From a virus: a DNA stretch of 64,000 bases. Shown here piece after piece: positions 4,550-13,219 of this stretch. Position 1 is the stretch's first letter; each line of letters begins with the position of its first letter. A program made the position numbers and the translations under genes. Below the pieces are notes generated by a model, which was not told the origin of the DNA, did no database searches, and saw only the letters and a list, made by a program, of their open reading frames with translations. Location: IMG/VR virus record IMGVR_UViG_3300031951_000028, one strand, 5' to 3'.

Positions 4550-4870
4550 ATGAGCACTAATTTGGTAAAAGAAGTTCCTTACATGTATCTGACTAAGACC
4601 AGTGACCACGCAGCAATTAAGATGCTCGTTAAGAGTATTGACCAAGAAAAGGTTGCTGTTGATAAGGAATTGGTTGAAATGCCAGAAGGTCTTAATGTTA
4701 ATTATCTACTGTTTGTTTATCTCGGTAAATATGGAGAAAACTTTAGTGGAGTATTGACTTATAATCAAGAAATTGATGAGGCTAACGCTCCAAAGGCGGC
4801 TCATATGCTTGATTTTTCTAATTTTATTAAGGTATGTAAATACGAGCATGAGACGCAAACCGACTACTAA
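4550..4870 (+). CDS. Hypothetical protein with host-like codon usage (no ATA, no TTA)
   Basis: ORF track; GAGG SD; codon inspection. Confidence 0.75.
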   Translation: MSTNLVKEVPYMYLTKTSDHAAIKMLVKSIDQEKVAVDKELVEMPEGLNVNYLLFVYLGKYGENFSGVLTYNQEIDEANAPKAAHMLDFSNFIKVCKYEHETQTDY

Positions 4871-5083
4871 TCAGAATAATTATTATTGTGTAGATATTAA
4901 GAAATTAGATAGTTCAGCAGTTGCAATGCTTCATAAAATGACAGGAATTCGTAGATATGAAGAAAGTAATCCTATGGGATTCTTCGTAGTAAGAATTGTT
5001 GGTATTAAACAATATGTGTACAGCACTAATTTTAGTGTTGGAGAAGAAGTAGATATAAGTAAATTTTTGGAGATCATCAAACA

Positions 5084-5743
5084 ATGATATTTGTTGGGGA
5101 TACTCATGGGAAATACTATGAGTATTATGATATAGTTAAAAATGAAAAGGCAAGTCTTCAACTAGGAGATTTTGGCTTTCAAAATAGTTGGAATAAATTA
5201 ATGTATTCCGATTTGAATCATGAGATGCATAAAGTTGGACAAGGCAACCACGACCCTCATGAATTTTTGACTAAAGATATGCCTTATTGGACTGGAAGAT
5301 TTGGAAAACTTTCTATAGATAAAAATGATATGTACTGGATTGGTGGAGCTTTATCCATAGATTTGGTATATAGAGTCGGTGATTGGCTTTCTAGAGAAAG
5401 AAATCCAATGTATAAAACTTGGTGGTCAAATGAGCAGCTTGATTTATTTGAAATGGAGGCTTGCAAAAAGGAATTTTTACAAGAAAAGCCGCGAATAGTA
5501 GTTTCTCATACTTGTCCATCAACAATAATTCCACTTTTTAATAATAATAAAAGTGGTAATATTATGGACCATTACGGCTGGGGTCATGGATATAATGATA
5601 TGACTAGTCAATTTTTACAAATATTGCTAGAACAATATCAACCAGAGCTTTGGTTGTTTGGGCATTTCCATAATAATTTTGAGTCTACTATAAATGGGAC
5701 AAAATTTATTTGCCTTGGAGAACTCCAAACGTATAAAATATGA
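5084..5743 (+). CDS. Calcineurin-like metallophosphoesterase
   Basis: GDTHG, LGDFG, GNHD, SHT, GHFH motifs. Confidence 0.92.
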   Translation: MIFVGDTHGKYYEYYDIVKNEKASLQLGDFGFQNSWNKLMYSDLNHEMHKVGQGNHDPHEFLTKDMPYWTGRFGKLSIDKNDMYWIGGALSIDLVYRVGDWLSRERNPMYKTWWSNEQLDLFEMEACKKEFLQEKPRIVVSHTCPSTIIPLFNNNKSGNIMDHYGWGHGYNDMTSQFLQILLEQYQPELWLFGHFHNNFESTINGTKFICLGELQTYKI

Positions 5744-5964
5744 TAATCTATGGAAAACAAGTTAGAGAAGTTCTAACAAAATTAAAAACCCCCAAATTTT
5801 TATGGGAGGATTGTTTTAGTGAAGGTTTGCTTTATGCGGTGATCGCTGCAAAAAAGTATGATAAAACTAAAGGCAGTCTTAATAATTGGATTAAAATATG
5901 CGTATTTCATAATATGAAAAGGTATTTAAATAATGAAAAGACTGCAAGGGGAATTGAAATCTGA
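5740..5964 (+). CDS. Stand-alone sigma70 region-2-like protein (74 aa)
   Basis: EDCFSEGLLYAVIAAKKYDKTKGSLNNWIKICV resembles the region 2.2-2.4 consensus EDL.QEG..GL..A..KFD..KG..FSTY. Confidence 0.65.
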   Translation: MIIYGKQVREVLTKLKTPKFLWEDCFSEGLLYAVIAAKKYDKTKGSLNNWIKICVFHNMKRYLNNEKTARGIEI

Positions 5965-6313
5965 ATTTATTTCTTCTTTCAGGAAGATGCTTGATAAGTA
6001 TCCTTCTTTAAAAGAAATATATGAGGAGCGCTTGGAATTATCAGCACAAAGGGAAAAAATGTATGATAATTTAAGTGAGAGCGATTATAAAAATCCTGAA
6101 ATAATGGAAAGTTTTTTTAATGATGTCTCTGTTATTGTTCTTCTGGCTGTTTTAGAAGGTACTATATGAAAGTGCAAAATCCAGTTGTTGGTATTGGTAG
6201 TGTTGTTGATGGCAATCGTGTAACAAGCATTGATGGCCGTTGGCAAAATATCAATTTAGTAAATGAGTCTGGTGTTGTAAGTGTTATGAGTTTTCAGGAA
6301 GTTGAAAAATTTT

Positions 6314-10508: not shown

Positions 10509-11640
10509 ATTTATTAGAAGATTGTGTTTTGAAGAAAGTTTCTTCTCAGCACTTTCAATTCACATTGATAAGCGATTTATCAAAGATGATAAAATTACAG
10601 CTTATGTGGCAGTAAAGAAAGACTCTGATATAGAGTTAGTAATTAACGAAAATTTTTGGGATACCTTAACTGAAGACCAAAAATATGGTATTATCAAACA
10701 TGAGTTGTATCACATCTCTTTTTTCCATTTATTTAAAATGATGGAAAATAAGGCCCTGGATAATATAGCTAAGGATATTGTTGTTAATCAATATATTCCA
10801 GCTAATATGCTTCCTCCCGGTGCGGCTACTATAGAGCAATTTGCTCATCTTAATTTACTACCTCTACAAGATTTCATGACTTATTATAATATTCTGATGC
10901 AAAATCAGGATGATAAGAAAGTTAAGCAATATACTGATGCTTATAATGAAATGGGGGGCGGTGATTTAAGAGAGTGCCAAGATGGTGATGAAGGTGAGCA
11001 GTCTGATGCTAAAAAGTATGGAGAAGCTCAACTAAAGAATAACATGAAGAAAATCTTCAATGATGTTCTTAAACGCAATCGTGGAAAAATTCCTGCCGGT
11101 CTTGAATCTATAATGGATTATGTTAATACTGCTGTTGTAGATGAATTGAATTGGAAAGAAAAGTTAAAGTATTTTGCTTCTGCTGCACGCAGAGTGAAAA
11201 TTCATTTAACACGAAATAAGCTAAATAAACGTCTAGGAATGGATTATCCTGGTACAAATATTAAGCGTAAAACAAAAGTGTTAGTTGCCATAGATACGTC
11301 TGGCTCAGTAGCTGACGAAGAATTAATGAAATTTATGGAACAAGTATACTTAATGAGCAAAACAGACTGCGAAATAACAATCGTAGAATGTGATGCTAAA
11401 ATGTATGAGCCTTGGTTATTTAATAAAAAACGTAAAATTAAGTTTAAAGGACGAGGTGGAACTTCTTTTGACCCTGTATTAGAATATTTTAACAAAGAAC
11501 CTTATAATGGCCTAATCTATTTCACAGATGGTTATTGTAGCACTAGCATTTCTACAAATAAGAAAATTTTGTGGGTTGTGACTAGTGGTGGAACAATGGA
11601 ATTTCAAGCTCCCGGCAATAAAGTACAGATTAAGAATTAA
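10492..11640 (+). CDS. Metallopeptidase-like (HExxH) + VWA domain protein, DUF2201-type, copy 1
   Basis: KHELYH, NIAKDIVVNQ, IDTSGS MIDAS, ECDA, GRGGTSF, YFTDG. Confidence 0.9.
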   Translation: MEKLDKFIRRLCFEESFFSALSIHIDKRFIKDDKITAYVAVKKDSDIELVINENFWDTLTEDQKYGIIKHELYHISFFHLFKMMENKALDNIAKDIVVNQYIPANMLPPGAATIEQFAHLNLLPLQDFMTYYNILMQNQDDKKVKQYTDAYNEMGGGDLRECQDGDEGEQSDAKKYGEAQLKNNMKKIFNDVLKRNRGKIPAGLESIMDYVNTAVVDELNWKEKLKYFASAARRVKIHLTRNKLNKRLGMDYPGTNIKRKTKVLVAIDTSGSVADEELMKFMEQVYLMSKTDCEITIVECDAKMYEPWLFNKKRKIKFKGRGGTSFDPVLEYFNKEPYNGLIYFTDGYCSTSISTNKKILWVVTSGGTMEFQAPGNKVQIKN

Positions 11641-11665
11641 GTTTTTTAAAAAAAGGATAATAATT

Positions 11666-12808
11666 ATGAGTTCTTCGAAAGATATCCAAAATACTTTGAC
11701 TTACGTTTTCAATAATAATAAGGAGTTGGCAAAAAAGAATCGCCCACCAGTAGCACTAGAAATTATCGGTCCTGCTGGTATTGGTAAGACTAGCGTGATT
11801 ATTGATTTTTGCAAGTATAACTCTCTTGATTATGCTAAGATTAACTTAGCTCAAATGGATGAGTTGGCAGAACTTATTGGTTGGCAAGTTCGTGAATTCA
11901 AGACTGTTGATGGTGAATGGATTAACGAAAAGCAAACTGAAAATAATAAAGTTAAGTTGACTAACGAAACTCGTACTTCTTGGTGTCCTCCTAAATGGGT
12001 TCCTACTGATACTAAGGGTGGCGTACTAATTCTTGACGACTGGAATCGTGCTGACCCACGATTTACTCAAGCTGTTATGGAGTTGATTGACCGTGGAGAA
12101 TATGTTTCTTGGAAAATGCCACAGAATTGGACTATTGTATTAACGAGTAATCCTGATAATGGTGATTACTCTGTTAATACTGTTGACCCTGCTCAACGCA
12201 CTCGTTATTTGACTGTCGAAATGTCTTTCAACCACAAAGAATGGGCTACTTGGGCTGAATTTAATAATATTGATTCGCGTTGTATCAATTTCGTATTGAT
12301 GAATCCAGAAATCATTAATAATAAGAAGGTAAATCCTCGTGCAGCTACAAAGTTCTTCGATGTGATTTCTTCTATTAAAGACTTTTCTGATAATTTAGAT
12401 TTCATTTCTACTATTGGTCATGGATTAGGTGAAGAATTTACTACCTGTTTCATTTTGGCAGTTCAAAACCGCCAAGATAAAATCATTGATATCTCTGATA
12501 TCTTTGCACTGGATTTCCCATCTGTAAAGAATCAAATGAATGATTGTACTGGTTTTGGTAGTAAGAAGTATAAGAGCAGTGTTGGTGCAACTATTATTAC
12601 TCGTATGGTGAACTACCTTGCAAAACTTAATGTTGAAGGTAAGATTACTAAGAGTCATTATAATCGTTTGCGTGAATTTTGTGACACCGCTCTACTTCCA
12701 AAGGAAAATTATTCTTATCTTTTGAAGGAAATTGCAACCATTGATAATCCAATCACTGATGCAATTTATAAGTCTAACGACACGGTCTTTACTCAATATA
12801 TTCACTAA
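11666..12808 (+). CDS. MoxR-like AAA+ ATPase, copy 1
   Basis: Walker A GPAGIGKT, Walker B LILDDWNRAD, LTSNP; start placed after AAGGA SD. Confidence 0.9.
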   Translation: MSSSKDIQNTLTYVFNNNKELAKKNRPPVALEIIGPAGIGKTSVIIDFCKYNSLDYAKINLAQMDELAELIGWQVREFKTVDGEWINEKQTENNKVKLTNETRTSWCPPKWVPTDTKGGVLILDDWNRADPRFTQAVMELIDRGEYVSWKMPQNWTIVLTSNPDNGDYSVNTVDPAQRTRYLTVEMSFNHKEWATWAEFNNIDSRCINFVLMNPEIINNKKVNPRAATKFFDVISSIKDFSDNLDFISTIGHGLGEEFTTCFILAVQNRQDKIIDISDIFALDFPSVKNQMNDCTGFGSKKYKSSVGATIITRMVNYLAKLNVEGKITKSHYNRLREFCDTALLPKENYSYLLKEIATIDNPITDAIYKSNDTVFTQYIH

Positions 12809-12868
12809 TTTTTGAATTTAATTTTATTTTTTTTATTTTTTTTATTTTTTGCTACGAGGATAATATAT

Positions 12869-13219
12869 ATGTCTACTTCTACTATTCATGATTTGCGGCG
12901 TGCTGGTTACAAAGTTCATGTTGACCATTACCGATATTTTATCGAAGATGTAACTTGTGATTATATCTTTACTGATAAAATCAGGAAGCGTACTAAGACC
13001 CATAAGATTCCAGTGCTAAAGAAATATAGTATGTCAACTATTACGAAAGATCGTAAGAAAGATGTGTTCGCACGCGGAGGTGAAACTGTTGTAACTATTA
13101 CAACTAATGCTGGTACTTTTAGTAGCAATGTTCATTGTTCAATTGATGATAATTATAATAAAAAGGAAGGTGCAAGTCAAGCTCTAACCAAGCTTCTCGC
13201 TGCCATAAAGTTATCATAA
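12869..13219 (+). CDS. Hypothetical phage protein with C-terminal CS.DD.YNKK.G..AL motif
   Basis: GAGGA SD; motif familiar from small phage proteins. Confidence 0.7.
   Translation: MSTSTIHDLRRAGYKVHVDHYRYFIEDVTCDYIFTDKIRKRTKTHKIPVLKKYSMSTITKDRKKDVFARGGETVVTITTNAGTFSSNVHCSIDDNYNKKEGASQALTKLLAAIKLS

Follow-up and report, generated by a model that had tools for sequence, protein, structure and literature searches.

In the bldA system of Streptomyces, the rare TTA codon marks a few regulated targets. For phages, a codon-compensation model was reportedly formulated by Bailly-Bechet et al. in 2007, in 'Causes for the intriguing presence of tRNAs in phages'. In the standard model, phage tRNAs serve the codons favoured by the phage, mainly those of its late genes (Limor-Waisberg et al. 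2011, PMC3152331; Shigella phage Sf14, PMC12482277). The genes of T4 are described as falling into discrete codon-usage classes related to expression time (Cowe & Sharp 1991, J Mol Evol 33:13, as cited in PMC3152331), and codon differences between early and late genes are reported for half of 14 phages (PMC5683454). Gating of late-gene translation by tRNA has been proposed for stop-codon recoding with suppressor tRNAs (Borges et al., 10.1101/2021.08.26.457843). Phage-encoded TilS is described in the Pseudomonas jumbo phage MIJ3 / PA5oct (PMC6892783). The subject here is a small class of phage genes, four of them between positions 4550 and 13219 of a stretch of 64,000 nucleotides (the window; IMG/VR record IMGVR_UViG_3300031951_000028), which avoid the four codons read by the tRNAs of the phage itself.

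The window corresponds to bases 17,731-81,730 of a single 128,386-bp IMG/VR virus contig from an uncultured phage, with 33% G+C and an estimated completeness of 86%. Positions are window coordinates unless marked as contig. Genes were called with a greedy longest-open reading frame (ORF) procedure and a start picker aware of Shine-Dalgarno (SD) sequences, which gave 246 ORFs covering 96% of the contig. All ORFs are open under the standard bacterial code, and stop-codon recoding is not involved. Codon-class statistics are based on 183 scorable genes. Genome-wide, AGA makes up 54.5% of Arg codons, ATA 42.4% of Ile codons, TTA 53.1% of Leu codons and AAA 76.4% of Lys codons. The use of these codons was expressed for each gene as the served-codon fraction, (AGA+ATA+TTA+AAA)/(Arg+Ile+Leu+Lys codons).

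The preliminary description of this DNA, which was made by reading codons, named four plus-strand genes with unusual Arg, Ile and Leu codons, and its counts were all reproduced. The largest, at 11666-12808, encodes a MoxR-like AAA+ ATPase (AAA_5, phrog_1297). It has no AGA, no AGG and 14 CGN codons (10 CGT, 3 CGC, 1 CGA), ATA is absent from its 33 Ile codons, and TTA is used for 4 of 25 Leu codons. The probability of so few AGA and ATA codons is 2e-13 against the genome frequencies (0.545 for AGA and 0.424 for ATA), and the served-codon fraction is 13/102, or 0.13. The gene at 6484-6879 (131 amino acids) is the most extreme, with 0/36 served codons; all 9 Arg codons are CGN, and neither ATA (0/3) nor TTA (0/13) is used. 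The gene at 4550-4870 (106 amino acids, served 3/24) has zero Arg codons, ATA in 0/4 and TTA in 0/10. The gene at 12869-13219 (116 amino acids, served 8/36, or 0.22) contains no AGA, one AGG and six CGN codons, and a single ATA among nine Ile codons, three codons ahead of the stop.

The same genes are recovered without being named beforehand. At the extreme of the unsupervised principal axis of codon residuals, which explains 13% of the variance and has its largest loading on the change from AAA to AAG, stand the four flagged genes and no others. They are followed by a 382-amino-acid gene on the minus strand, the gene for a CobS/CbbQ-type AAA+ ATPase at 13301-14164 on the plus strand (Pfam AAA_5 and CbbQ_C; served 25/82, or 0.30), and a gene for 133 amino acids just outside the window. 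A two-component beta-binomial model beats one component by ~29 units of the Bayesian information criterion. In this fit, most genes form a tight mode at 0.604, and seven genes are outliers, each with posterior >0.95. Codon use is thus a main dialect plus a small outlier class. The bimodality that had been anticipated genome-wide is present as a discrete class, but not as two comparable halves.

When the four flagged genes are compared with all others, AGA, ATA, TTA and AAA occupy ranks 1-4 in depletion among the 59 synonymous codons, with log2 odds of -6.6, -4.7, -3.6 and -3.3, respectively. The same four codons are strongly depleted in the three other outliers. A set of four drawn at random would be precisely this one with a probability of 2e-6 from all codons, or of 1e-3 from the 14 that end in A. 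The codons preferred in the class are CGT, ATT/ATC, TTG/CTT, AAG, GGT and ACT. ACA is depleted too, without a phage tRNA for it on the incomplete contig.

The depletion depends on the reading frame. Read in frame, AGA has an odds ratio of 0.13 and TTA one of 0.36; the values are 1.9 for AGA in the +1 frame, and 1.05 and 1.15 for TTA out of frame. It depends also on the codon. GAA, CAA, CCA and GCA are unshifted in the class genes, and AAG reaches 72% of Lys codons but GAG only 23% and CAG only 14% of theirs. At third codon positions, G+C rises from 0.20 to 0.26 in the class, A falls from 0.37 to 0.23, and T goes up. Because the bias is specific to codon and frame, foreign composition or avoidance of nuclease motifs is unlikely, and selection on decoding fits. 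Of the candidates considered, avoidance of a nuclease motif (e.g. ACA, of the MazF type) was rejected on the frame specificity, and a general A-to-G or GC shift on the unchanged GAA, CAA, CCA and GCA.

Six tRNAs are present on the whole contig, each confirmed by ARAGORN and Rfam. Four of them, His(GUG), Leu(UAA), Lys(UUU) and a tRNA with a CAU anticodon, lie in the left part of the contig, and two lie in the window on the plus strand. These are another CAU tRNA at 3945-4019 (Rfam RF00005, 64.5 bits) and tRNA-Arg(UCU), which reads AGA, at 4024-4097 (Rfam 71.6 bits). The CAU tRNA of the window has C4-G69 and C5-G68 pairs and a weak, A/T-rich anticodon stem. Because of this stem it is not considered an initiator, and its sequence and its position adjoining tilS indicate that it is probably tRNA-Ile2. 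The tilS gene (2812-3354, plus strand; Pfam PF01171, 84.5 bits against a cut-off of 27) encodes a mini-TilS of 160-180 amino acids, depending on the start codon chosen. It contains the PP-loop catalytic domain alone, without the C-terminal tRNA-binding domains of the long bacterial enzymes. Only three short TilS homologues were found, and the closest homologues have 182-186 amino acids.

Together, the phage tRNAs decode AGA, AUA (the CAU tRNA with mini-TilS), UUA and AAA. These are the four codons avoided by the class, and the match is stronger than had been claimed at first, as the decoders of TTA and AAA, outside the window, are included. The codons served (by Arg-UCU, CAU twice, Leu-UAA and Lys-UUU) are frequent ones in the phage, as in codon compensation. 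The tilS gene shows a pattern of its own. ATA is absent from its 14-16 Ile codons (p about 1e-4 to 4e-4), whereas AGA accounts for 9 of 10 Arg codons and AAA for 10-13 of the Lys codons, and TTA is used freely as well. It avoids solely the codon that depends on its own product, and this is what a bootstrapping constraint would look like.

A truncated tRNA-like element of 64 nt is present at 6903-6966, directly after the most extreme class gene. It scores 43.9 bits with the Rfam tRNA model, but ARAGORN does not call it. In its 3' end and the leader downstream, it is similar to the tRNA-Arg region at 4075-4122 (repeat D5).

The class combines genes of the left arm with a late gene. The 382-amino-acid protein, when folded on an alignment of 61 sequences, gave a predicted local distance difference test score of 93.7 and a predicted template modelling score of 0.90. 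The model matches duplicated-domain tail-tube proteins, with Foldseek E-values from 1e-8 to 7e-11; the matches are the SH-Ab15497 major tail protein, T5 pb6, the T5 tail tip and the P74-26 tube. By this modelled fold, it is assigned as a tail-tube protein of the T5 pb6 type, a late virion protein of many copies. Its gene lies a few genes upstream, on the same strand, of a 2,069-amino-acid ORF, which is a candidate tape measure by size and position alone. The four small class proteins have no recognisable family by Pfam or PHROG. This applies to the product of 4550-4870 and to that of 6484-6879, for which neither database gave a match and the Atlas gave weak leads resembling helix-turn-helix proteins.

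Ribosome-binding sites also distinguish the class. Clear SD sequences had been noted in the flagged genes. The SD duplex energy is -5.4 to -7.1 kcal/mol in all seven class genes, with the strongest value (-7.1 kcal/mol) at 6484-6879, against a median of -3.9 in the others (p 0.007). The spacer is at least 14 nt long in 6/7 class genes and in 30% of the other genes (p 0.005). A direct-repeat search found no common upstream motif. Five of the seven outliers are located at 4.1-14.2 kb, in the region that immediately follows tilS and the tRNAs (p 1e-4), and class genes are interleaved with ordinary genes inside runs of overlapping ORFs. A scan for promoters and terminators found 118, where 115 are expected from shuffles; with no enrichment, no transcription units can be drawn.

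Along the plus strand, a microprotein array is followed by mini-TilS with two tRNAs, by auxiliary genes (phosphoesterase, PRPP synthetase-like, NAMPT), by three AAA+/VWA modules and then by replication genes (RNA ligase, ribonucleotide reductase, ligase, RecA and a split Pol III alpha). The tail genes are on the minus strand. In each of the three modules, all on the plus strand, an AAA_5 ATPase is encoded beside a VWA-domain protein. Module 1 combines the class gene at 11666-12808 with a DUF2201 metallopeptidase/VWA-like gene at 10477-11640 (Pfam PF09967 and PF13203), whose served-codon fraction is intermediate (0.44). Module 2 combines the CobS-like class gene at 13301-14164 with a CobT-like VWA partner at 14169-15959 (Pfam VWA and CobT_C), which is in the ordinary dialect (124/181, or 0.69). 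Module 3 consists of a second DUF2201/VWA-like gene in the ordinary dialect at 17513-18565 (0.58) and a paralogous MoxR-like AAA+ ATPase at 18797-19963, which is 50% identical to that of 11666-12808.

The ATPase is the depleted partner in all three modules (0.13 vs 0.44, 0.30 vs 0.69, and 0.38 vs 0.58 and 0.68), with p from 3e-3 to 1e-8 for the differences. The sharpest change is across the 4-nt gap between the CobS-like and CobT-like genes (0.30 vs 0.69, Fisher p 1e-8). The paralogue at 18797-19963 had been described as using AGA and ATA freely. ATA is used for only 3 of its 30 Ile codons, and its intermediate fraction of 0.38 is below the genome norm of 0.60 (p 1e-6).

The codon bias is a trait of the AAA+ family in AT-rich aquatic phages and is not peculiar to one genome. 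Around 100 related phage loci were found, of which 75 distinct loci have six or more long genes. Among these 75, the AAA+ homologue has the smallest served-codon fraction in 40 (9.1 expected) and ranks last or second to last in 56; it uses less ATA in 71. It is below the upstream neighbour of 350-450 amino acids, which is at the position of the VWA-like partner, in 82/96 loci, and below the downstream neighbour in 70/76. In these phages, the gene for MoxR-like AAA+ (phrog_1297) is usually the most ATA-poor long gene within its 20-kb neighbourhood.

It is likely, although far from certain, that the class reflects translational selection on individual genes, with all other genes relying on the phage tRNAs for compensation, in a pattern of the T4 type. 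The phage would be at an AT-rich equilibrium, where AGA, AUA, UUA and AAA are the commonest within their codon families. For each of the four it carries a decoder of its own, namely tRNA-Arg(UCU), presumably one or both of the CAU tRNAs with mini-TilS, tRNA-Leu(UAA) and tRNA-Lys(UUU). A few genes, for three AAA+ ATPases, four small proteins and the tail-tube protein, would be kept by translational selection on CGT, ATT/ATC, TTG/CTT, AAG, GGT and ACT, codons that ordinary G34, I34 or C34 tRNAs would read. The stronger ribosome-binding sites of the same genes behind their own spacers would belong to the same signature, that of a protein needed in larger amounts or more reliably than those of the neighbours. 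Examples may be the hexameric AAA+ ATPases in relation to their VWA partners, and the tail tube with its many copies. The cause would lie in the rate or yield of translation, in a host that presumably decodes the four codons poorly.

Several observations weigh against this explanation. The preferred codons are called host-optimal only as judged by the phage's own genes. A MoxR-like ATPase and four small proteins are not obvious products of high abundance. The clustering of outliers downstream of tilS and the tRNAs is not predicted by a pure expression-level model. The major capsid gene, on which such a class is usually tested, was not found on the 86%-complete contig. The related loci are not phylogenetically independent.

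The preliminary description proposed instead a timer gated by tRNA supply, in which genes free of the four codons are translated at once with host tRNAs and the others await the phage tRNAs and TilS-matured tRNA-Ile2. Such a timer is unlikely, although the exact correspondence of avoided codons and phage decoders counts in its favour. So does tilS, which is devoid of ATA while using AGA and AAA freely, as if the decoding of AUA needed its own product; tilS itself, however, requires the decoding of AGA and AAA. The location of five of the seven class genes directly downstream of tilS and the tRNAs can be read in its favour, but they are downstream, not upstream, of the tRNA genes. On the same strand, the microprotein array precedes tilS and the tRNAs, at the usual position of early genes for host takeover, yet it has the highest ATA (51%), with AGA at 54% and AAA at 83%. 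The free use of AGA and ATA in this array was correctly noted at first, as was the ordinary dialect of the replication genes, which holds for nearly all of them; with a timer, they would be in the late dialect. The late tail-tube gene is in the class, and the AAA+ bias is family-wide across many phages. To our knowledge, bacteria almost universally carry their own TilS and tRNA-Ile2, and from general knowledge AUA and the other codons would be slow rather than unreadable. A timer could act on ORFs within one mRNA, and operon structure alone does not exclude it. The proposed immediate-early set gated by tRNA supply is nevertheless not upheld, in view of the late tail-tube member, the ATA-rich array, the mixed gene runs and the family-wide AAA+ bias.

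A similarly low probability is given to the wider form of this idea, a self-bootstrapping sense-codon timer that many aquatic phages would share around their MoxR-like ATPases. If it were true, the four A-ending codons would hold back translation in the infection until the decoding kit of the phage is at work. AUA-free TilS would be made first and AUA decoding would then be switched on; AAA+ ATPases would appear at once along with a few small proteins, and the VWA partners and the bulk of the proteome afterwards. Codon choice would then order the appearance of proteins within shared transcripts.

Mosaic origin, in which the class came in from a genome or phage of other codon use and has yet to drift to the resident composition, is very unlikely. 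The stretch at 4-14 kb is slightly richer in G+C (0.32-0.34) than its flanks (0.25-0.30), and class genes are scattered among ordinary ones in the manner of morons. The shift is nevertheless codon- and frame-specific and not compositional, as the contrast of AAG with GAG and CAG and the change of only +0.06 in third-position G+C indicate. A segment of clearly other composition does exist at the left end of the contig. This block (contig bases 1-9400) is 39-55% G+C, mostly on the minus strand, and carries four tRNA genes (His, Leu-UAA, Lys-UUU and CAU). In its genes AGA is 17%, ATA is 14% and TTA is also low, with CGG, CCC, CCG, GGG and CTG enriched, and its poverty in codons of the phage tRNAs is a general GC shift.

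The ancestry of the AAA+ genes is also not that of a late arrival. The 11666-type gene has homologues at 87-95% identity, and the 18797-type gene has an orthologue at 89% (P0009). For this orthologue and for an 87% homologue of the 11666 type (P0004), the longest contig listed has the same length, 142,429 bases, and they are probably on one related contig. Both paralogues therefore have orthologues that are equally diverged and apparently from the same relative. In a tree of the MoxR-like homologues there are two well-supported old clades, one per paralogue type. P0006 and P0013, one from each clade, are both listed with a longest contig of 16,419 bases, so that both types probably coexist in a more distant phage. 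Because of the two old clades and the probable presence of both types in relatives, the 11666-type gene is not a recent import. The tail-tube gene has the same dialect, and the AAA+ homologues are biased in ~100 other loci.

Scans of viral, metagenome and genome contigs, with a protein or an alignment as query, gave homologues of at most 48% identity, with one exception. It is a 327-nt fragment (10001-10327) of an 11666-type AAA+ gene at the contig end of a metagenome-assembled genome of Flavobacterium sp. Its last 73 residues are identical to those of the window, the first 36 are diverged, the N-terminal part is missing, and the adjacent 10 kb are unrelated. The fragment is an assembly chimera or a gene remnant, and not a reliable link to a host. 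Neither a nucleotide search with 4100-13300 nor a protein search with the tail-tube protein gave a match in the phage collection.

Defence-proofing, in which host anticodon nucleases hit tRNAs that bear a modified U34 or lysidine (Lys-UUU, Arg-UCU, Leu-UAA, Ile2), those of the phage are replacements, and a few critical genes are written to bypass the vulnerable tRNAs, is highly improbable: from general knowledge all four phage decoders are of the modified-wobble class, and the phage has an RNA ligase (26132-27373), the truncated tRNA-like element and NAD-salvage genes of a counter-defence type between class genes, but nothing marks the class genes as counter-defence, NAMPT (0.48) and the PRPP synthetase (0.54) are both in the ordinary dialect, the tail-tube gene has no reason to be defence-proof, and GAA and CAA, also read by modified-U34 tRNAs, are not avoided.

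Other features of the contig were observed. The PRPP synthetase-like and NAMPT genes are side by side at 7263-9605, and this NAD salvage pair lies between class genes. A gene of the PD-(D/E)XK nuclease family at 49351-51267 contains an intein-splicing domain and a LAGLIDADG domain. DNA polymerase III alpha is apparently split into ORFs 54338-55891 and 56961-58268, with two small ORFs (62 and 227 amino acids) in between. At the right end of the contig (contig bases 125852-128233, minus strand), a 793-amino-acid protein has collagen triple-helix repeats and YadA-head repeats, and the local rise of G+C there is due to it. Among the large proteins of the contig, no match to capsid, portal or terminase was found by Pfam or PHROGs; these genes are probably in the missing 14% of the genome.

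Taken together, the evidence points to gene-by-gene tuning of translation, not to a timing switch. The pattern is a sharp case of known codon compensation, and a new regulatory mechanism is not established by it. The phage offers an unusually clean natural link between its own tRNAs and its codon usage, with an AUA-enabling enzyme that is itself AUA-free. Across ~100 loci of AT-rich aquatic phages, codon optimisation within the neighbourhood is usually strongest in the gene for the MoxR-like AAA+ ATPase, and mostly stronger there than in its VWA partner. From this, the MoxR-like protein may be needed in high or stoichiometrically tuned amounts in infection.

The comparison with described systems gives likeness and difference in each case. 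As in phages with stop-codon recoding, a phage tRNA can be proposed to gate one gene class; unlike in them, the codons here are sense codons that any bacterium can read. As with bldA, the supply of one tRNA could limit the translation of genes with its codon. Unlike the bldA codon, the codons here fill ~95% of the genes (~60% of Arg, Ile, Leu and Lys codons) and few genes are without them; they are not confined to a small regulated set, and occur in replication genes and, in the case of AGA and AAA, in tilS. With MIJ3 / PA5oct the phage shares a gene with the PP-loop lysidine-synthetase domain, but the TilS here is of 160-180 amino acids, is encoded beside its presumed substrate tRNA, and is ATA-free. 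Like the phages of the codon-compensation model, this is an AT-rich phage with tRNAs for its own favoured A-ending codons. The likeness concerns the phage half of that model, and a single-domain TilS beside a CAU tRNA sets the phage apart. A further parallel is T4. In both, discrete codon groups exist in one genome, the tRNAs read the codons of the majority, and the minority avoids them. Unlike in T4, the minority class is tiny here (~7/183 scorable genes), and left-arm genes are mixed in it with a late tail gene, which speaks against one temporal class. Compared with T4, the avoided codons here coincide fully with those of the phage tRNAs, at 4/4.

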